Below are positions 1 through 9,690 of a stretch of 9,690 bases of DNA, piece after piece (positions within the stretch are counted from its first letter, which is position 1; each line of letters opens with the position of its first letter). The translations under genes were made by a program, and so were the position numbers. The DNA lies in IMG/VR virus record IMGVR_UViG_2548876935_000017; one strand, given 5' to 3'. The DNA is from a virus (Duplodnaviria > Heunggongvirae > Uroviricota > Caudoviricetes). Under the pieces are notes generated by a model that saw only the letters and a list, made by a program, of their open reading frames with translations, had not been told where the DNA came from and did not search any database.

Positions 1-117
1 GAGGAACTGGCGCAATATAATTTGTGGCTGGATTATCTGGACGCACTGGAACTGGTTGATACCTCCAGTGCTCCAGATATTGAATGGCCTACGCCTCCGG
101 CAGTTCAGGCCAGATGA
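1..117 (+). CDS. Tail fibre assembly protein (Tfa/gpG-like), 3' end only; 5' part off-window
   Basis: Frame 1 is open from base 1 to TGA at 115-117 and encodes ...LWLDYLDALELVDTSSAPDIEWPTPPAVQAR. This is clearly paralogous to the C-terminus of the minus-strand Tfa (…AVLDYIDAVTATDTSTAPNVIWPELPEA), sharing LDY-DA, DTS-AP and WP--P. Confidence 0.6.
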   Translation, partial: EELAQYNLWLDYLDALELVDTSSAPDIEWPTPPAVQAR

Positions 118-694
118 CATTCGGCGCGGTGCTGGTATCTGTTGCCGTCACTGCGTCAATGTAATCCAGCACAGCATTAAGTCGGGTTGTTTCTGCCTGC
201 GTCAGCTTCCGCCCGGCCTGTAATTTCAGTTGAATCAGACTGATGGAAGCCATTGCAGCATCAATCAGCGACTGGCGCTGTGCTTCTGCCGCGTCTACTG
301 CGGCACTATGCTGTGCCTCAGTATCTGTCACCCATTTCTCACCATCCCATTTATCGTATGGCGTTAACGGGACGATAGTGGTTGTATTTTCAGGGTAATC
401 ACCCGGAGCTGTGATTTCTTTTGATTCTCCCGTTTCGGTGTTATAGACAACTTCACCGCGATGGTCTGGCACATATTCCCATGAGTTTAAATCTGCCGAA
501 CGGCAGATTGCATAACCAACCTTATGTGTGCCAGGAGCATCTAAACAGGAATATGCAGGGATACCGACACCCACAGCAAGATATTCAGTTGATGCAGAAA
601 TATACTCCCGTGTCTCACTGTCATAGTTATAAACGGTAATCTCTCCTGCCTTTGTGGCAATAAATTTATTATTTAAGATGGCGTTATACATCAT
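89..694 (-). CDS. Tail fibre assembly protein, alternative copy (Tfa') carried in the invertible segment
   Basis: 201-aa ORF of typical Tfa size with the conserved C-terminal WPELP motif; its start overlaps the stop of the upstream fibre ORF (ATGA at 691-694); convergent with the + strand tfa 3' end. Confidence 0.85.
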   Translation of the reverse strand: MMYNAILNNKFIATKAGEITVYNYDSETREYISASTEYLAVGVGIPAYSCLDAPGTHKVGYAICRSADLNSWEYVPDHRGEVVYNTETGESKEITAPGDYPENTTTIVPLTPYDKWDGEKWVTDTEAQHSAAVDAAEAQRQSLIDAAMASISLIQLKLQAGRKLTQAETTRLNAVLDYIDAVTATDTSTAPNVIWPELPEA

Positions 695-1269
695 GCAGCC
701 CTCACAATGTAATTAAATGAAATATTACGTGGGCGTGTCTCTGCTGCACCGACAATACTGGTACTCAACCCCGTTGCCGTTCGTTTGTTATTTTTATTTC
801 CTTCAATCAGACAGTTGTAATCATCATTACCAATTAACGAATTGGTGGCATCAATACTGTCCGGGGACAAGGCATTAGTTGTGGAACTTAAAGTCAGCAT
901 CTCGTCTGAACTTGGAAGATTTTTTAATGGTGTTTCATTGCGTGAAATACCCGCGTAAAAAAAGGACTCATGCCTGTGAGCTTCAAAAGAGTCATTCTGA
1001 AGACTTAGCAAGGCTCGCCCCGCATCCACTCCACGTCCATCATCCCAGCCACGAATAAATTCACCGCGTAAATCAGGCAATTTATTGGTCGGGTAAGCCT
1101 TTGTCAGTTCCGGGTATTCTTCAGCAGAAAAAGCCGCACCATTGCATTTCAGCCAGCCTGTTGGCGGTGTGGCTGAAGGCCATGGAACAGGCACACCAAC
1201 AGGTAATGCAGAGCCTTCTCCCAAACCAACGTTTATGAAAATGCAGAGATAACGGCTAACTGGCATCAT
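691..1269 (-). CDS. Alternative tail-fibre C-terminal (receptor-binding) segment, silent orientation. The ATG at 1269 is probably not a real start; in vivo this segment would be fused to the constant fibre N-terminus after inversion
   Basis: 192-aa ORF immediately upstream of and coupled to tfa'; sequence of tail-fibre distal-domain type (…PVPWPSATPPTGWLKCNGAAFSAEEYPELTKAYP…LPDLRGEFIRGWDDGRGVD…); lies between tfa' and the invertase gene, as S'v does in Mu/P1/e14 segments. Confidence 0.7.
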   Translation of the reverse strand: MMPVSRYLCIFINVGLGEGSALPVGVPVPWPSATPPTGWLKCNGAAFSAEEYPELTKAYPTNKLPDLRGEFIRGWDDGRGVDAGRALLSLQNDSFEAHRHESFFYAGISRNETPLKNLPSSDEMLTLSSTTNALSPDSIDATNSLIGNDDYNCLIEGNKNNKRTATGLSTSIVGAAETRPRNISFNYIVRAA

Positions 1270-1295
1270 CTCCGGTTTTTATTCAGGGGATCCAT
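1255..1295. other. Candidate invertase crossover site (hix/gix/cix-like), right-hand copy
   Basis: Position between the 5' end of the minus-strand fibre cassette and the invertase start; GGTTTTTATTCA at 1274-1285 resembles the hix half-site GGTTTTTGATAA. The other half-site is a poor match. Confidence 0.3.
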
Positions 1296-1296
1296 C

Positions 1297-1890
1297 ATGC
1301 TTATTGGCTATGTCCGCGTATCAACAAATGACCAGAACACGGAATTGCAGCGTAATGCGCTGGAGTGTGCAGGATGTGAGCTGATTTTTGAGGATAAAAT
1401 CAGCGGCACTAAGTCCGATCGACCGGGACTAAAAAAACTGCTCAGAACATTATCAGCAGGTGACACTCTGGTAGTCTGGAAGCTGGACAGGCTGGGGCGT
1501 AGTATGCGGCATCTGGTCATTCTGGTTGAGGAACTGCGCGAACGCGGTGTTAATTTTCGCAGCCTGACGGATGCCATTGATACCAGCACGCCGATGGGGC
1601 GTTTTTTCTTTCATGTGATGGGTGCCCTGGCTGAAATGGAGCGAGAACTTATTGTCGAGCGGACACGCGCCGGACTGGAAGCGGCCAGAGCCAAAGGTCG
1701 TATTGGTGGCAGACGTCCGAAACTCACCGCGAGTGAGTGGGAGCAGGCCGGGCGGTTGCTGGCTGCGGGGGAATCTCGTCAACGCGTGGCACTGATTTTT
1801 GATATTGGTCTGTCCACGCTCTATAAAAAATTTCCCTCATCAGTGACAAAGAATAAATTGTGTCATCCCTTAGCCAACCGGGACAAATAG
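1297..1890 (+). CDS. Serine recombinase DNA invertase (Hin/Gin/Pin/Cin family)
   Basis: 197-aa ORF; N-terminus MLIGYVRVSTNDQ with the catalytic Ser in GYVRVSTNDQ; internal GRIGGRRPKL and C-terminal helix-turn-helix …LSTLYKK; strong resemblance to Pin/Gin as I remember them; RBS GGGGA upstream. Confidence 0.9.
   Translation: MLIGYVRVSTNDQNTELQRNALECAGCELIFEDKISGTKSDRPGLKKLLRTLSAGDTLVVWKLDRLGRSMRHLVILVEELRERGVNFRSLTDAIDTSTPMGRFFFHVMGALAEMERELIVERTRAGLEAARAKGRIGGRRPKLTASEWEQAGRLLAAGESRQRVALIFDIGLSTLYKKFPSSVTKNKLCHPLANRDK
1380..1404. promoter_or_regulatory. Perfect 9-bp inverted repeat (GCTGATTTT-N7-AAAATCAGC) inside the invertase 5' coding region; candidate part of a Fis-dependent recombinational enhancer
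   Basis: Read directly from sequence. In Hin/Gin/Cin systems the enhancer lies within the first ~100-200 bp of the invertase gene; this repeat is 84-108 nt into the ORF. Confidence 0.25.
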
Positions 1891-1949
1891 CCTGACATCT
1901 CCGGCACAACTGAAAATACCACTCACCCATTAACCACGGAGTTAAACGG

Positions 1950-3140
1950 ATGAGTGACTATCATCACGGCGTGCAGGTGCTGGAGATTAACGACGGCACC
2001 CGCGTCATTTCCACCGTATCCACTGCCATTGTCGGCATGGTCTGCACGGCCAGCGATGCGGATGCGGAAACCTTTCCCCTCAATAAACCTGTGCTGATTA
2101 CCAATGTGCAGAGCGCAATTGCAAAGGCCGGTAAAAAAGGCACGCTGGCGGCGTCGCTGCAGGCCATCGCCGACCAGTCAAAACCGGTCACCGTTGTTGT
2201 GCGCGTGGAAGACGGCACCGGCGACGACGAGGAAACGAAACTTGCGCAGACCGTTTCCAATATCATCGGCACCACCGACGAAAACGGTCAGTACACCGGA
2301 CTGAAAGCCCTGCTGGCGGCGGAGTCAGTAACCGGTGTTAAACCGCGTATTCTCGGCGTGCCGGGACTGGACACCAAAGAGGTGGCTGTTGCACTGGCAT
2401 CAGTCTGTCAGAAGCTGCGCGCTTTCGGGTATATCAGCGCATGGGGCTGTAAAACCATTTCCGAGGTGAAAGCCTACCGCCAGAATTTCAGCCAGCGTGA
2501 GCTGATGGTCATCTGGCCGGATTTCCTCGCATGGGATACGGTCAGCAGCACCACCGCCACCGCGTATGCCACCGCCCGTGCGCTGGGGCTGCGTGCTAAA
2601 ATCGACCAGGAGCAGGGCTGGCATAAAACGTTGTCCAACGTCGGGGTAAATGGTGTTACCGGCATCAGCGCATCTGTATTCTGGGATTTGCAGGAGTCCG
2701 GCACCGATGCTGACCTGCTGAATGAGTCAGGCGTCACAACGCTGATTCGCCGTGACGGTTTCCGCTTCTGGGGTAACCGTACCTGCTCTGATGACCCGCT
2801 GTTCCTCTTTGAAAACTACACCCGCACCGCGCAGGTACTGGCCGACACGATGGCTGAGGCGCACATGTGGGCGGTGGACAAGCCCATCACCGCAACGCTG
2901 ATTCGCGACATCGTTGACGGCATCAATGCCAAATTCCGTGAGCTGAAAACAAACGGTTATATCGTGGATGCGACCTGCTGGTTCAGCGAAGAATCCAACG
3001 ATGCGGAAACCCTCAAGGCCGGAAAACTGTATATCGACTACGACTATACACCGGTGCCTCCTCTCGAAAACCTGACCCTGCGCCAGCGTATTACCGATAA
3101 ATACCTGGCAAATCTGGTCACCTCGGTTAACAGCAATTAA
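1950..3140 (+). CDS. FI: Contractile tail sheath protein (P2 gpFI-like)
   Basis: 396-aa ORF, RBS GGAG upstream; size and sequence consistent with P2 FI; followed by the tube gene. Confidence 0.9.
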   Translation: MSDYHHGVQVLEINDGTRVISTVSTAIVGMVCTASDADAETFPLNKPVLITNVQSAIAKAGKKGTLAASLQAIADQSKPVTVVVRVEDGTGDDEETKLAQTVSNIIGTTDENGQYTGLKALLAAESVTGVKPRILGVPGLDTKEVAVALASVCQKLRAFGYISAWGCKTISEVKAYRQNFSQRELMVIWPDFLAWDTVSSTTATAYATARALGLRAKIDQEQGWHKTLSNVGVNGVTGISASVFWDLQESGTDADLLNESGVTTLIRRDGFRFWGNRTCSDDPLFLFENYTRTAQVLADTMAEAHMWAVDKPITATLIRDIVDGINAKFRELKTNGYIVDATCWFSEESNDAETLKAGKLYIDYDYTPVPPLENLTLRQRITDKYLANLVTSVNSN

Positions 3141-3152
3141 GGAGCCTGACCG

Positions 3153-3671
3153 ATGGCAATGCCGCGCAAACTCAAGTTAATGAACGTCTTTCTGAACGGC
3201 TACAGCTATCAGGGCGTTGCAAAGTCCGTCACGCTGCCAAAACTGACCCGTAAACTCGAAAACTATCGCGGTGCGGGGATGAACGGCAGCGCACCGGTAG
3301 ACCTCGGCCTTGATGACGATGCGCTGTCAATGGAGTGGTCGCTCGGTGGCTTCCCGGATTCGGTTATCTGGGAGCTTTACGCCGCAACCGGTGTGGATGC
3401 CGTGCCGATTCGTTTTGCAGGCTCTTACCAGCGCGACGATACCGGCGAAACGGTGGCCGTCGAAGTGGTCATGCGTGGACGTCAGAAAGAAATCGACACC
3501 GGCGAGGGTAAACAGGGAGAAGACACTGAGTCGAAAATCTCCGTGGTCTGCACCTATTTCCGGCTGACGATGGACGGTAAGGAGCTGGTCGAAATTGACA
3601 CCATCAACATGATTGAGAAGGTGAACGGCGTCGACCGGCTGGAGCAACACCGCCGCAATATCGGCCTGTAA
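3153..3671 (+). CDS. FII: Tail tube protein (P2 gpFII-like)
   Basis: 172-aa ORF 12 bp after FI, RBS GGAGCC; P2 FII-like size and position. Confidence 0.9.
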   Translation: MAMPRKLKLMNVFLNGYSYQGVAKSVTLPKLTRKLENYRGAGMNGSAPVDLGLDDDALSMEWSLGGFPDSVIWELYAATGVDAVPIRFAGSYQRDDTGETVAVEVVMRGRQKEIDTGEGKQGEDTESKISVVCTYFRLTMDGKELVEIDTINMIEKVNGVDRLEQHRRNIGL

Positions 3672-3678
3672 TTTTCAT

Positions 3679-3699
3679 CCGGTCAGTCAGGCTGACCGG
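3679..3699 (+). other. Intergenic stem-loop (8-bp perfect stem CCGGTCAG / CTGACCGG, 5-nt loop) between FII and E, without a U-tract
   Basis: Read directly from sequence. Confidence 0.4.
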
Positions 3700-3727
3700 T
3701 TAACCCCGATTCAGAAGTGAGAAAACC

Positions 3728-4003
3728 ATGAACAAAGAAAATGTCATTATCCTGGACAATCCGGTTAAACGTGGTGAGCAGGTTATCGAACAGGTCACGC
3801 TGATGAAACCCAATGCAGGGACGCTGCGCGGTGTCAGTCTGGCTGCGGTCGCAAACTCCGAAGTCGATGCACTGATTAAAGTGCTGCCGCGCATGACGGC
3901 ACCGATGCTGACCGAGCAGGAGGTCGCCGCGCTGGAACTGCCTGACCTTGTGGCGCTGGCCGGTAAGGTGGTCGGTTTTTTGTCGCCGAACTCGGTGCAG
4001 TAA
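3728..4003 (+). CDS. E: Tail assembly chaperone gpE (P2 E-like)
   Basis: 91-aa ORF with RBS GAGAAAA upstream; position between the tube and tape-measure genes; contains the T6G slippery site near its 3' end. Confidence 0.85.
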   Translation: MNKENVIILDNPVKRGEQVIEQVTLMKPNAGTLRGVSLAAVANSEVDALIKVLPRMTAPMLTEQEVAALELPDLVALAGKVVGFLSPNSVQ

Positions 4004-4155
4004 CGTTCCCGAAAAATCTGTCGGTCGATGACCTGATGGCGGATGTGGCAGTGATATTTCACTGGCCGCCATCAGAACTGTATCCCATGAGCCTGACCGA
4101 ACTCATCACATGGCGCGAAAAGGCGCTCCGGCGAAGCGGAAACACGAATGAGTAA
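3728..4155 (+). CDS. E+E': gpE+E' frameshift fusion: -1 programmed ribosomal frameshift at the slippery heptamer 3976-3982, extension terminating at TAA 4153-4155
   Basis: In E frame the codons are GGT TTT TTG (3974-3982). The -1 frame is open from the slip site and reads …FFVAELGAVTFPKNLSVDDLMADVAVIFHWPPSELYPMSLTELITWREKALRRSGNTNE*, overlapping the start of T as in P2. Confidence 0.7.
3976..3982 (+). other. Slippery heptamer T TTT TTG for the E/E' -1 frameshift
   Basis: Read directly from sequence; same heptamer class as the P2 E/E' site. Confidence 0.7.
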
Positions 4156-6595
4156 CAATGTAAAATTACAGGTATTGCTCAGGGCTGTTGACCAGGCATC
4201 CCGCCCGTTTAAATCCATCCGCACAGCGAGTAAGTCGCTGTCGGGGGATATCCGGGAAACACAAAAATCACTACGCGAGCTGAACGGTCACGCATCCCGT
4301 ATTGAGGGATTCCGCAAGACCAGCGCACAGCTCGCCGTGACTGGTCATGCACTTGAAAAGGCACGGCAGGAGGCCGAAGCCCTTGCCACACAGTTTAAAA
4401 ACACCGAACGTCCGACCCGTGCTCAGGCGAAAGTGCTGGAATCAGCAAAGCGAGCGGCGGAAGACTTACAGGCGAAATATAACCGCCTGACGGATTCCGT
4501 TAAACGCCAGCAGCGGGAACTGGCCGCTGTGGGAATTAATACCCGCAATCTTGCACATGATGAGCAGGGGCTGAAAAACCGTATCAGTGAAACCACCGCA
4601 CAGCTTAACCGTCAGCGCGACGCACTGGCGCGTGTCAGTGCACAACAGGCAAAACTTAACGCAGTCAAACAGCGTTATCAGGCCGGAAAAGAACTGGCAG
4701 GAAATATGGCCTCAGTGGGCGCTGCCGGTGTGGGGATTGCTGCTGCGGGAACGATGGCCGGAGTTAAGCTGCTGATGCCCGGTTATGAGTTTGCGCAGAA
4801 AAACTCAGAATTGCAGGCTGTGCTCGGTGTGGCAAAAGACTCCGCCGAAATGGCCGCACTACGCAAGCAGGCGCGCCAGCTCGGTGACAATACCGCCGCC
4901 TCAGCGGATGATGCGGCCGGTGCGCAGATTATCATTGCGAAAGCGGGTGGAGATGTTGATGCCATTCAGGCGGCAACGCCGGTCACGCTGAACATGGCGC
5001 TGGCGAACCGTCGCACGATGGAAGAAAACGCCGCCCTGCTGATGGGGATGAAATCTGCCTTTCAGCTTTCAAACGATAAGGTCGCTCATATCGGGGATGT
5101 TCTCTCCATGACGATGAACAAAACCGCCGCTGATTTTGACGGCATGAGCGATGCGCTGACCTATGCCGCACCAGTGGCAAAAAATGCCGGTGTCAGCATT
5201 GAAGAAACTGCCGCAATGGTCGGGGCGCTGCATGATGCAAAAATCACAGGCTCAATGGCGGGGACGGGAAGCCGTGCCGTGTTAAGTCGCCTGCAGGCAC
5301 CGACTGGAAAAGCATGGGATGCACTCAAAGAGCTTGGCGTGAAAACCTCAGACAGTAAGGGAAACACCCGACCAGTATTTACCATTCTGAAAGAAATGCA
5401 GGCCAGCTTTGAGAAAAACCGGCTCGGTACTGCCCAGCAGGCCGAATACATGAAAACCATTTTCGGGGAGGAGGCCAGCTCAGCCGCCGCTGTGCTGATG
5501 ACTGCCGCGTCAACCGGAAAGCTGGACAAACTGACCGCTGCGTTTAAAGCCTCAGACGGGAAGACCGCAGAGCTGGTAAATATCATGCAGGACAACCTCG
5601 GCGGTGACTTTAAGGAGTTTCAGTCCGCTTATGAGGCGGTGGGGACAGACCTGTTTGACCAGCAGGAAGGCGCACTGCGTAAGCTCACGCAGACGGCCAC
5701 AAAGTATGTGTTAAAACTCGACGGCTGGATCCAGAAAAACAAATCACTGGCGTCAACCATCGGCCTCATTGTCGGTGGTGCACTGGCGCTGACTGCTGTC
5801 ATCGGTGCCATTGGCCTCGTAGCCTGGCCGGTTATCACTGGCATCAATGCCATCATCGCGGCAGCAGGCGCAATGGGGGCAATCTTCACGACGGTTGGCA
5901 GTGCTGTTATGACGGCCATCGGGGCGATTAGCTGGCCGGTTGTGGCCGTGGTGGCCGCCATTGTCGCCGGGGCGTTACTTATCCATAAATACTGGGAGCC
6001 TGTCAGCGCATTCTTTGGCGGTGTGGTGGAAGGGCTGAAAGCGGCATTTGCGCCGGTGGGAGAACTGTTCACGCCACTGAAGCCGGTGTTTGACTGGCTG
6101 GGCGAAAAGTTACAGGCCGCGTGGCAGTGGTTTAAAAACCTGATTGCCCCGGTCAAAGCCACACAGGACACCCTGAACCGTTGCCGTGACACGGGCGTCA
6201 TGTTCGGGCAGGCACTGGCTGACGCGCTGATGCTGCCGCTTAATGCGTTCAACAAACTGCGCAGCGGTATTGACTGGGTACTGGAAAAACTCGGTGTTAT
6301 CAACAAAGAGTCAGACACACTTGACCAGACCGCAGCCAGAACTCATGCCGCCACGTATGGCACCGGTGGTTATATTCCGGCGATCAGCTCTTATGCAGGC
6401 TATCAGGCTTATCAGCCGGTTACGGCACCGGCTGGCCGCTCTTATGTGGACCAGAGTAAAAACGAATATCACATCAACCTGACGGGCGGTACTGCGCCGG
6501 GAACACAGCTTGACCGCCAGTTACAGGATGCGCTCGAAAAATACGAGCGGGATAAACGTGCGCGCGCCCGTGCCAGCATGATGCATGACGGTTAA
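4148..6595 (+). CDS. T: Tail tape measure protein (P2 gpT-like)
   Basis: 815-aa ORF after E/E'; coiled-coil-like, Ala/Gln/Lys-rich N-terminal half and a long hydrophobic Gly/Ala-rich segment typical of tape measure proteins. Confidence 0.9.
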   Translation: MSNNVKLQVLLRAVDQASRPFKSIRTASKSLSGDIRETQKSLRELNGHASRIEGFRKTSAQLAVTGHALEKARQEAEALATQFKNTERPTRAQAKVLESAKRAAEDLQAKYNRLTDSVKRQQRELAAVGINTRNLAHDEQGLKNRISETTAQLNRQRDALARVSAQQAKLNAVKQRYQAGKELAGNMASVGAAGVGIAAAGTMAGVKLLMPGYEFAQKNSELQAVLGVAKDSAEMAALRKQARQLGDNTAASADDAAGAQIIIAKAGGDVDAIQAATPVTLNMALANRRTMEENAALLMGMKSAFQLSNDKVAHIGDVLSMTMNKTAADFDGMSDALTYAAPVAKNAGVSIEETAAMVGALHDAKITGSMAGTGSRAVLSRLQAPTGKAWDALKELGVKTSDSKGNTRPVFTILKEMQASFEKNRLGTAQQAEYMKTIFGEEASSAAAVLMTAASTGKLDKLTAAFKASDGKTAELVNIMQDNLGGDFKEFQSAYEAVGTDLFDQQEGALRKLTQTATKYVLKLDGWIQKNKSLASTIGLIVGGALALTAVIGAIGLVAWPVITGINAIIAAAGAMGAIFTTVGSAVMTAIGAISWPVVAVVAAIVAGALLIHKYWEPVSAFFGGVVEGLKAAFAPVGELFTPLKPVFDWLGEKLQAAWQWFKNLIAPVKATQDTLNRCRDTGVMFGQALADALMLPLNAFNKLRSGIDWVLEKLGVINKESDTLDQTAARTHAATYGTGGYIPAISSYAGYQAYQPVTAPAGRSYVDQSKNEYHINLTGGTAPGTQLDRQLQDALEKYERDKRARARASMMHDG

Positions 6596-6609
6596 GGAGG
6601 TGACGAAAA

Positions 6610-7089
6610 ATGATGCTCGCGTTAGGTATGTTTGTTTTTATGCGCCAGACGCTGCCACACCAGACCATGCAGCGTGAATCAGATTATCGCTGGCCGTCAA
6701 ATTCCCGTATCGGTAAACGGGATGCCTTTCAGTTTCTCGGTGTGGGTGAGGAAAACATGACGCTTGCCGGTGTGCTTTATCCCGAACTGACCGGCGGCAA
6801 GCTGACGATGACCACGCTCAGACTGATGGCAGAGGAAGGCCGGGCGTGGCCGTTGCTGGATGGCACCGGCATGATTTACGGCATGTATGTCATCAGCAGG
6901 GTGAGTGAAACAGGGAGTATTTTCTTTGCAGACGGCACACCCCGGAAAATTGATTTTACGCTGTCGCTCACCCGCGTTGATGAATCACTGGCCGCGCTTT
7001 ATGGCGATATCGGTAAACAGGCGGAATCGCTCATCGGTAAGGCTGGCAGTATGGCGACTAAATTCACGGGTATGACGGAGGCGGGATAA
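6610..7089 (+). CDS. U: Tail protein gpU-like
   Basis: 159-aa ORF with RBS GGAGG (6596-6600); its stop overlaps the D start (TAATG). Confidence 0.85.
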   Translation: MMLALGMFVFMRQTLPHQTMQRESDYRWPSNSRIGKRDAFQFLGVGEENMTLAGVLYPELTGGKLTMTTLRLMAEEGRAWPLLDGTGMIYGMYVISRVSETGSIFFADGTPRKIDFTLSLTRVDESLAALYGDIGKQAESLIGKAGSMATKFTGMTEAG

Positions 7090-8252
7090 TGCTGGATGCG
7101 CTGACATTTGATGCAGGCAGTACGCTGACGCCGGATTACATGCTGATGCTCGACAGCAGGGATATTACCGGCAATATCAGCGACCGTCTGATGAGCATGA
7201 CCCTGACGGATAATCGGGGCTTTGAGGCTGACCAGCTTGATATTGAACTGAACGACGCCGACGGGCAGGTCGGGCTACCGATTCGCGGCGCTGTCCTGAC
7301 GGTGTATATCGGCTGGAAAGGTTTTGCCCTGGTATGCAAAGGGAAATTTACCGTTGATGAGGTTGAACACCGGGGCGCGCCGGATGTGGTTACCATCCGC
7401 GCCCGGAGTGCAGATTTTCGCGGGACGCTCAATTCCCGCCGGGAAGGCTCCTGGCATGACACCACGCTCGGTGCGATTGTTGAGGCGATAGCCACCCGTA
7501 ACAGGCTGGAAGCCAGTGTCGCTCCGTCACTGGCCGGAATTAAAATCCCGCACATCGACCAGTCGCAGGAGTCTGATGCAAAATTCCTGACCCGCCTTGC
7601 TGAACGCAACGGCGGTGAGGTGTCGGTAAAAATGGGAAAACTGTTGTTTCTCAAAGCGGGGCAGGGGGTGACGTCAAGCGGTAAAAAAATCCCGCAGATT
7701 ACCATCACCCGCAGCGACGGCGACCGTCATCATTTTGCGATTGCTGACCGTGGAGCCTATACCGGCGTAACGGCAAAGTGGCTTCACACCAAAGACCCGA
7801 AGCCGCAAAAGCAGAAGGTAAAACTGAAACGCAAAAAGAAAGAAAAACACCTGCGCGCACTGGAGCACCCGAAAGCGAAACCAGTCACGCAGAAGAAAGC
7901 GCCAAAAGTACCGGAAGCGCGCGAAGGTGAATACATGGCCGGTGAGGCTGACAACGTTTTTGCCCTGACCACGGTATATGCCACGAAAGCACAGGCCATG
8001 CGTGCCGCTCAGGCGAAGTGGGATAAACTGCAACGGGGCGTTGCGGAGTTCTCCATCAGCCTGGCTACCGGTCGTGCAGATATTTACACGGAAACGCCGG
8101 TCAAAGTGTCAGGCTTTAAGCGTGTCATAGACGAGCAGGACTGGACAATCACTAAGGTGACACATTTTCTGAATAATAGCGGCTTCACGACGTCCCTGGA
8201 GCTTGAGGTCAGGCTTTCTGATGTGGAGTACGAAACAGAAGATTATGAGTGA
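7089..8252 (+). CDS. D: Tail/baseplate protein gpD (late control gene D family)
   Basis: 387-aa ORF translationally coupled to U; size and position match P2 D. Confidence 0.88.
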   Translation: MLDALTFDAGSTLTPDYMLMLDSRDITGNISDRLMSMTLTDNRGFEADQLDIELNDADGQVGLPIRGAVLTVYIGWKGFALVCKGKFTVDEVEHRGAPDVVTIRARSADFRGTLNSRREGSWHDTTLGAIVEAIATRNRLEASVAPSLAGIKIPHIDQSQESDAKFLTRLAERNGGEVSVKMGKLLFLKAGQGVTSSGKKIPQITITRSDGDRHHFAIADRGAYTGVTAKWLHTKDPKPQKQKVKLKRKKKEKHLRALEHPKAKPVTQKKAPKVPEAREGEYMAGEADNVFALTTVYATKAQAMRAAQAKWDKLQRGVAEFSISLATGRADIYTETPVKVSGFKRVIDEQDWTITKVTHFLNNSGFTTSLELEVRLSDVEYETEDYE

Positions 8253-8333
8253 TGTCTTTTGTTTATCTGTTTGTTTTATAAGGATAAATTAACTAAAATG
8301 GCACTATCAACAAAACCGGAAGAGGTGCTCGCG

Positions 8334-8552
8334 ATGTTTCATTGTCCTTTATGCCAGCATGCCGCACATGCGCGTACAAGCCGCTATATCACTGACACGA
8401 CAAAAGAGCGTTATCACCAGTGCCAGAACGTGAATTGCAGCGCCACGTTCATCACTTATGAGTCGGTACAGCGATACATCGTGAAGCCGGGAGAAGTCCA
8501 CGCCGTGAGGCCGCACCCGTTGCCGTCAGGGCAGCAAATTATGTGGATGTGA
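8334..8552 (+). CDS. ogr: Late transcription activator Ogr (zinc-finger)
   Basis: 72-aa product starting MFHCPLCQHAAH… with a Cys-X2-Cys…Cys-X4-Cys motif (CPLC, CQNVNC). The ORF track begins at an upstream ATG (8259); the internal ATG at 8334 gives the canonical 72-aa Ogr. Confidence 0.85.
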   Translation: MFHCPLCQHAAHARTSRYITDTTKERYHQCQNVNCSATFITYESVQRYIVKPGEVHAVRPHPLPSGQQIMWM

Positions 8553-8679: not shown

Positions 8680-8706
8680 CCCCCACATGATGTGGGGGTT
8701 TTTTTT
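8680..8706 (+). terminator. Strong rho-independent terminator (CCCCCACAT-G-ATGTGGGGG followed by T8)
   Basis: Read directly from sequence; GC-rich 9-bp stem plus U-tract, 81 bp upstream of the fieF start. Confidence 0.7.
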
Positions 8707-8732
8707 ATCCTCAATTTGCCTGCTGCTTAATG

Positions 8733-8761
8733 CATTGCAGATGATTTGCTTCCGTTATACT
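8733..8761 (+). promoter_or_regulatory. Candidate sigma70 promoter for fieF (-10 TATACT at 8756-8761; weak -35-like TTGCAG at 8735-8740)
   Basis: Hexamer inspection only; spacing is suboptimal. Confidence 0.3.
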
Positions 8762-8787
8762 AGCGTCAGTTGATAGCGGGAGTATTT

Positions 8788-9690
8788 ATGAATCAATCTT
8801 ATGGACGGCTGGTCAGTCGGGCGGCGATTGCTGCGACGGCGATGGCTTCGCTGCTATTGCTGATTAAAATTTTTGCATGGTGGTATACCGGGTCGGTGAG
8901 TATTCTCGCCGCGCTGGTGGATTCGCTGGTGGATATCGGCGCGTCGTTGACGAATTTATTGGTGGTGCGATATTCCCTGCAACCTGCCGACGATAATCAC
9001 TCGTTTGGTCACGGTAAAGCTGAGTCCCTCGCGGCGCTGGCGCAAAGTATGTTTATCTCCGGTTCGGCACTATTCCTGTTTTTGACGGGTATTCAACATC
9101 TGATATCTCCAACACCGATGACAGATCCAGGCGTCGGGGTTATCGTGACAATTGTGGCGCTAATTTGTACGATTATCCTTGTCTCGTTTCAGCGTTGGGT
9201 GGTGCGGCGGACGCAAAGCCAGGCGGTGCGGGCTGATATGCTACATTACCAGTCTGATGTTATGATGAACGGCGCAATTCTGCTGGCGCTGGGGTTGTCC
9301 TGGTACGGCTGGCATCGCGCCGATGCTCTGTTTGCATTGGGAATCGGCATCTATATTTTATATAGCGCGTTACGCATGGGATATGAGGCGGTACAGTCAT
9401 TACTGGATCGCGCATTGCCTGATGAGGAACGGCAAGAAATTATTGATATCGTGACTTCCTGGCCGGGTGTTAGCGGCGCTCACGATCTTCGCACGCGGCA
9501 GTCAGGGCCGACCCGCTTTATTCAGATTCATTTGGAAATGGAAGACTCTCTGCCTTTGGTTCAGGCACATATGGTGGCGGATCAGGTAGAGCAGGCTATT
9601 TTACGGCGTTTTCCGGGATCGGATGTAATTATCCATCAGGACCCCTGTTCCGTCGTACCCAGGGAGGGTAAACGGTCTATGCTTTCATAA
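8788..9690 (+). CDS. fieF: Cation-diffusion-facilitator ferrous iron/zinc efflux transporter FieF (YiiP)
   Basis: 300-aa product from ATG 8788 ([25 protein letters not shown]…), recognised as E. coli FieF/YiiP; multiple hydrophobic helices and a C-terminal cytoplasmic domain. The ORF track's TTG start at 8770 is an upstream extension. Confidence 0.9.

Follow-up and report, generated by a model that had tools for sequence, protein, structure and literature searches.

Gene content at the left end of the window

The DNA considered here, a 9,690-bp stretch from the Caudoviricetes record IMGVR_UViG_2548876935_000017 (called the window throughout), comprises the right arm of a prophage followed by the chromosomal gene fieF. 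Positions 1–1890 hold the 3' end of a tail-fibre chaperone gene (tfa), a second tfa gene converging on it, a fibre-tip coding region on the minus strand and a gene for a serine DNA invertase (Table 1). An earlier note, made from the sequence alone, had placed both tfa genes and the invertase at the positions at which we find them, and matches to Caudo_TAP and to Resolvase plus HTH_7 bear these assignments out. We consider it very probable that this region is the right half, together with the recombinase gene, of a Pin-type inversion switch in the tail-fibre genes of a P2-like (Peduovirus) prophage. Four observations carry this reading: the parts in the window are intact, its crossover site is identical to that of the e14 element, close relatives have the partner site and a reading frame that continues across it, and near-isogenic genomes differ by exact flips of the segment.

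The 3' ends of the two tfa genes overlap by 29 bp. An annotated counterpart of the window is a prophage of Escherichia coli GPEC1035 (locus L001), which is 97.5% identical, has the same annotation and also adjoins fieF; window positions 1–117 align with the end of its 146-residue tfa product (8680–9117). The tfa gene ending at 117 serves the fibre tip that is now joined to the fibre protein H, and its start, along with that tip, lies to the left of the window. The gene at 89–694 shares 90.6% DNA identity with the tfaE region of e14, is annotated as tfaE in relatives, and serves a silent fibre tip.

The element that defines the edge of the invertible DNA is a 26-bp crossover site at 1216–1241, with the sequence TTCTCCCAAACC-AA-CGTTTATGAAAA. 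The window contains a single copy, and 200 shuffles of the window gave no match even with three mismatches allowed. Compared directly with the e14 sequence of E. coli K-12 MG1655, it matches the site beside pinE at 26 of 26 positions. A search of the whole window for a partner-type site recovered only 1216–1241 itself, on the opposite strand. Homology between the window and loci with an identical invertase switches strand exactly at 1215/1216.

These boundaries change the extent of the fibre cassette. The earlier note had drawn it from 691 to 1269; the open reading frame (ORF) there does contain a Collar domain, but the true cassette is 691–1215, starting at the crossover site and running 5' to 3' on the minus strand. 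Because 1242–1269 lie outside the invertible DNA, the ATG at 1269 is fortuitous, and the pseudogene annotation of stfE, the counterpart in e14, has the same cause. The tip encoded by 691–1215 lacks its own start codon and promoter, and requires inversion, with fusion to the constant part of H, for its expression. At the protein level the tip is 54% identical to e14 StfE. The window therefore contains one full set of tip and tfa (691–1215 and 89–694, minus strand) and the tfa end of the other set, and, as sequenced, the Collar-domain tip occupies the silent position.

The recombinase encoded at 1297–1890 matches Resolvase (E=3e-52) and HTH_7 (E=1e-12), and its residues 1–182 align with the Mu Gin structures 3UJ3 (E=4e-94) and 4M6F (E~1e-93), whereas its match to gamma-delta resolvase is far weaker (E=4e-32). 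Its assignment to the Hin/Gin/Pin/Cin type, as originally proposed, agrees with these matches and with its amino-acid identities: 86% to PinE of e14, 84% to the invertase of Salmonella phage SEN8 (Fels-2-like), 78% to the P1-type Cin of phage D6 and 76% to Mu-type Gin. The sequence MLIGYVRVSTNDQ retains the Ser9 nucleophile, and the motifs VRVSTNDQ, SDRPG and KLDRLGRS are conserved. An inactivating mutation, which the earlier note had named as a finding that would speak against a working switch, was not seen in the invertase sequence, and the catalytic serine motif is intact. A role as a resolvase or an integrase was considered and rejected on the size of the protein, its identity to invertases and a context that is of neither res type nor att type.

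Hin-type invertases need an enhancer bound by the host protein Fis, which natively lies ~100 bp from the near crossover site (PMC3798978). Two 15-mers of the Fis-type pattern G-N13-C are present in the 5' end of the invertase gene, at 1318–1332 and 1367–1381, with starts 49 bp apart and with the centre of the proximal 15-mer ~97 bp from the centre of the crossover site. A de novo scan for this motif is unspecific when taken alone, as it returns many such 15-mers and several pairs spaced 47–49 bp apart; the pair retained here is the one that fits both the Hin geometry and the peaks of synonymous-site conservation. The latter was measured as the use of identical codons at conserved residues in a codon alignment of nine diverged invertase genes. 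The identical-codon fraction is 0.64–0.75 in codons 1–16, 0.33 in codons 13–24 and 0.55–0.66 in codons 21–40, compared with 0.42 for the whole gene and 0.29–0.47 for the rest of it. Raised codon identity in 1297–1416 is suggestive of an embedded DNA element with two constrained blocks, presumably the enhancer.

Table 1 Features of the window, in order of position
Feature	Position	Strand	Basis and remarks
tfa, 3' end	1–117	+	Frame 1; last 38 residues; Caudo_TAP positions 98–131 of 131, E=3e-11
Second tfa, tfaE-like, 201 residues	89–694	−	Full-length Caudo_TAP, E=3e-31; inside invertible segment
ORF with phage tail Collar domain	691–1269	−	Pfam, E=6e-15
Silent alternative C-terminal fibre-tip cassette, 175 codons	691–1215	−	Collar domain; startless
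26-bp crossover site	1216–1241		Core AA at 1228–1229; e14 identity; right edge of invertible segment
Serine DNA invertase, Pin/Gin/Cin/Hin group, 197 residues	1297–1890	+	Resolvase and HTH_7; outside invertible segment
Putative recombinational enhancer	1318–1381		Two Fis-type G-N13-C 15-mers in invertase 5' end
P2-type late promoter region pF	1853–1949	+	Homologue of activator (Ogr)-binding site at ~1853–1881; right junction of inserted module
Tail sheath gene FI	1950–3140	+	Phage_sheath domains; first gene of P2 F operon; right-hand anchor of the slot
Tube gene FII	3153–3671		
E/E' genes	Between FII and T		
Tape-measure gene T	4148–6595		
U	6610–7089		
D	7089–8252		
Ogr/Delta zinc-finger regulator	Within 8259–8552		
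fieF	8770–9690		Chromosomal

Partner site, reading frame and orientation in close relatives

The left half of the switch is visible in relatives that extend beyond the window. Across a 4-kb span of L001, the only inverted repeat of at least 16 nt pairs the near site with TTCTCACATACC-TT-GGTTTGGGAGAA, located inside the fibre gene H, 1,873 bp from the near site. A partner site inside H is also present in loci L002, L004 and L006, and every relative inspected has one. The core is TT at the partner site and AA at the near site, which places the two sites in inverted orientation, the arrangement needed for inversion instead of deletion. A three-site shufflon, such as that of one P2-like prophage of enteropathogenic E. 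coli (EPEC), was considered and rejected, given the single inverted-repeat pair in these 4 kb.

In the relatives, the two cassettes share one reading frame over the site, where both encode the residues ...YL-GLGE. Inverting the L001 segment in silico converts its 391-residue H into an open 454-residue H that ends in the Collar-domain tip of the window. This 454-residue form, with its Collar domain, occurs naturally in L003, L005 and L007 and is annotated in strain SC455. Both forms are open, and both are annotated in natural genomes. Over its N-terminal ~260 residues, P2 H shares 42% identity with the constant part of H; a complete second set of tip and tfa is seen in L001 and L004. The other tip of the relatives carries a Gp53-like_C domain, in place of the Collar domain of the window tip, which suggests that the two tips may recognise different receptors.

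A set of 5,426 complete E. coli genomes was searched with both the native and the in-silico inverted forms of L001. For the inverted form, SC455 gives a one-piece match of 99.0% identity over 100% of its length; for the native form, two sister isolates of SC455, namely SC477 and LR778142, give equally good matches. Over 9,448 bp, SC455 and SC477 are identical for 3,840 bp, exact reverse complements for 1,873 bp and identical again for 3,735 bp, with zero other differences, and the boundaries of the flip are the two crossover sites. Further orientation splits within strain series were found between ETEC1703/1718 and ETEC1730, between GF75/GF161 and GF8, and between 571 and 613/774. A residue-identical invertase protein is encoded in 152 blocks of the assembly collection, and loci with this protein occur in both orientations, with a 454-residue H in L005 and L007 and a 392-residue H in L006. 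Comparison of near-isogenic genomes thus establishes that the DNA between the sites inverts in orthologous prophages. The constant fibre part and the inverted partner site that the earlier note had expected to the left of the window, as well as the two orientations it had asked after, are accordingly all present in relatives, with the partner site inside H and breakpoints exactly at the sites.

Three short-read contigs that encode the identical invertase (L010, L011 and L012) end at or inside the 26-bp site, at window positions 1215–1231. Such ends would be produced by mixed orientations within a culture, or by repeats common to other Pin-type modules.

Orientation differences could in principle be assembly artefacts, or result from homologous recombination between the inverted repeats without any part for the invertase. 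Assemblers struggle at the site, as the exact ends of L010–L012 illustrate, and the odd 6-kb arrangement of locus L008 described below might be a misjoin; contig breaks at the site would, however, equally follow from mixed orientations within a culture. The repeats share only ~12–14 bp of exact identity, too short for efficient RecA recombination, and both orientations are found in complete-genome-level RefSeq records with no other difference over 9.4 kb. Moreover, inversion in P2-like prophages has been verified by polymerase chain reaction (PCR) (PMC4272514). We therefore regard an origin in assembly or homologous recombination as extremely improbable, and attribute the flips to the invertase.

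What holds for relatives must be carried over to the window, and several points weigh against doing so without reserve. The left site and the constant part of H lie outside the window, and the completeness of the switch is deduced from relatives of 95–99% identity; activity of the switch in the window's own genome is likewise presumed. In a simple scan of 1–2000, no sigma-70-like promoter was found for the invertase, promoter-like sites being no more frequent than in shuffled sequence. The enhancer is putative, proposed from its colinearity with Hin and from synonymous-site conservation, and its motif is degenerate; the dependence of the window invertase on Fis would follow by analogy.

Some of these points are what would be expected of a frozen relic, in which the segment no longer inverts in this genome, for instance through loss or mutation of the left site or lack of invertase expression, and in which the second tip and tfa are dead cargo. 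The left site is indeed beyond the window, the scan returned no promoter-like site upstream of the invertase, and the pseudogene annotation of stfE in e14 indicates that such modules do decay. Yet no interruption is seen in the invertase, in either tfa gene or in the cassette, the near site agrees perfectly with a site of active type, every relative inspected has the partner site, and exact flips among the relatives are very recent. A relic is thus quite unlikely in our judgement, and a functional inversion switch remains the reading that we prefer.

An exact search with the 201-residue product of the second tfa gene found nothing, and none of the relatives recovered through the invertase protein matches the window at 100%. 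The crossover site separates two stretches of the window with different best relatives: positions 1–1215 are 98.6% identical to segments of the SC455/SC477 type, and positions 1216–7890 are 99.96% identical to locus L009. This pattern suggests that the invertible segment may have been exchanged among prophages as a module.

Comparison with known switches and with the gene order of P2

The closest known system is the P segment of e14 (stfP-tfaP / tfaE-stfE / pinE), in which the genes have the same order and orientation as in the window. Besides the identical near site and the similar invertase, the tfa genes share ~91% DNA identity, tfaP and tfaE overlap tail-to-tail by the same 29 bp, and the N-terminal part of the tip cassette is conserved. 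The two differ in their surroundings, e14 being a lambdoid remnant and the window a P2-type myovirus tail module; mcrA follows the e14 module but is not downstream in the window. They also differ in two stretches of coding sequence. Window positions 744–996, which encode the receptor-binding tip, have no DNA homology to e14 stfE, and the window invertase departs from pinE after codon ~153, ending in a 13-residue C-terminal extension that runs into the pF region.

The G segment of Mu with Gin and the C segment of P1 with Cin have the same mechanism and are built alike: the constant region of the fibre lies beyond the invertible DNA, which holds two variable tips and their chaperones, and the invertase gene is found close by, also beyond it. 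Their invertases are 76–78% identical to that of the window, while the phage backbones differ; the crossover sites are related to that of the window without being identical, and in P1-type phages, unlike in the window, cin lies on the other side of the segment. The original proposal of a Mu G, P1 C and e14 P architecture is upheld by the near site in common with e14 and by the in-frame fusion in relatives.

Among P2-family phages, pro483 (KR073661) and SEN8 have the layout of the window: H, tfa, reversed tfa', reversed H' tip, DNA invertase and FI. The pro483 sequence is 95% identical over 91% of window positions 1–3200, and its invertase is annotated as 'DNA invertase'. The same architecture is found in 'phage P2' of O157:H43 T22 (KC618326), phage S164, Salmonella phage MET_P1_103_31 and a Yersinia peduovirus. 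Relative to the window, the invertase-bearing phages of the P2 family show only allelic differences in the tip cassettes.

Published work has documented such inversions. Goldberg et al. (2014) detected inversions by sequencing, and verified them by PCR, in two P2-like prophages of EPEC E2348/69, of which one has two variants and the other four (PMC4272514). The prophage with four variants has three repeats, in contrast to the two sites of the relatives inspected here. The iLund4u preprint reports that a DNA invertase is often present in the Z/fun hotspot of P2, with adjacent genes inverted (bioRxiv 10.1101/2024.10.15.618418).

In canonical P2 (AF063097), H and G are followed by a terminator, fun(Z) on the opposite strand, the activator-binding site of pF, and FI. 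Its annotation agrees with the claim of the earlier note that the G-FI interval of P2 holds fun(Z) and no invertase. P2 has a single fixed H of 669 residues and one G, with neither an invertase nor a second tip, unlike the window. The placement of the module in the G-FI slot was correct in that the module sits directly upstream of FI, but too narrow on the left: because the left site falls within H, the module takes the place not only of the Z/fun interval but also of gene G and the C-terminal part of H.

On the right, homology to P2 resumes at 1858–1870, within the region that aligns with the activator-binding site of P2 (AF063097 17555–17583). The pF region is retained, and from FI onward the window is 97% identical to P2. 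The last ~11 codons of the invertase and its stop (1858–1890) fall in DNA homologous to the pF activator (Ogr)-binding region of P2, which accounts for the 13 residues by which the protein exceeds PinE in length. The junction between invertase and pF is the same in GPEC1035 and pro483, and no terminator-like site was found between the invertase and FI in the scan of 1–2000. A 601-bp probe spanning the invertase-FI junction was covered over at least 80% of its length in 581 of the 5,426 complete E. coli genomes (~11%).

Downstream of pF, ORFs and Pfam matches follow the order FI-FII-E/E'-T-U-D-ogr, as in the tail module of P2-like phages (Peduoviridae). The ORF at 8259–8552 (TTG start, 97 residues) is longer than the annotated ogr of a relative (219 nt, ogrK). 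The end of the prophage and its attachment-site junction must fall in the ~220 bp between ogr and fieF.

Proposed operation, possible wider rearrangements and use in annotation

We propose that the switch would operate as follows. The constant N-terminal part of H would end at one 26-bp site, with 1216–1241 as its inverted partner, and the ~1.9-kb segment between the sites would hold two head-to-head sets, each consisting of a tip and its tfa chaperone. Produced in small amounts in the lysogen, the invertase would bind and synapse both sites, probably acting with host Fis bound to the enhancer in the 5' end of its own gene. Cleavage at the central dinucleotide and one 180-degree rotation of subunits would invert the segment. 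On induction, the tip facing H would be translated in frame with H, together with its chaperone, from the transcript of the late operon, and the other pair of tip and tfa, having no promoter and no start codon, would stay silent. A population of lysogens would then release virions of two receptor specificities. A change of host range upon inversion is presumed in this scheme.

One locus with the identical invertase, L008 (positions 1–5960; GCA_049992025.1, contig ABYUJY010000007.1), has a ~6.07-kb block inverted relative to L006. The block comprises the 3' end of a cargo ORF, the genes V-W-J-I-H and the whole invertible segment. On the right, the breakpoint coincides exactly with the crossover-site core (window position 1228); on the left, it lies at a weak quasi-site, TACGCCAATAAG|AA, with 6 of 12 half-site matches, near the 3' end of the 261-residue cargo ORF. 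The arrangement is either an inversion at a secondary site or a misassembly.

It is conceivable, if rather doubtful, that the invertase drives rearrangements beyond its own 1.9-kb segment, or that its expression is coupled to the control of the late tail operon. Larger rearrangements by the invertases of P2-like prophages come into consideration because the near site is identical to that of e14 and the L008 breakpoint lies at the site core; they could stay within the prophage, or involve as second partner e14 or another Pin-type module of the same chromosome. As for coupling to late tail-operon control, it could arise from the conserved C-terminal extension of the invertase, which overlaps the Ogr-binding site of pF.

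The cargo upstream of the baseplate gene V is itself variable. SC455 and SC477 (L003/L004, positions 1–362) carry a gene annotated as 'GTP pyrophosphokinase', and L005–L007 (positions 1–604) carry an AT-rich ORF of 261 codons with hydrophobic stretches and no Pfam match on record. The interval upstream of V appears to be a further hotspot of variation in these prophages.

Invertible tail-fibre segments have belonged to textbook knowledge since the G segment of Mu, the C segment of P1 and the P segment of e14 were described. In P2-like prophages, too, the arrangement is common and already known, being annotated, published and present in ~11% of complete E. coli genomes. The window therefore carries little weight as a discovery, and its value is practical and lies in annotation. 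The fibre ORF next to the invertase represents a silent cassette and not a gene in its own right. An assembly captures one momentary orientation out of a mixed population, and contig breaks at the site are to be expected. Prediction of host range for such prophages must weigh both tips.

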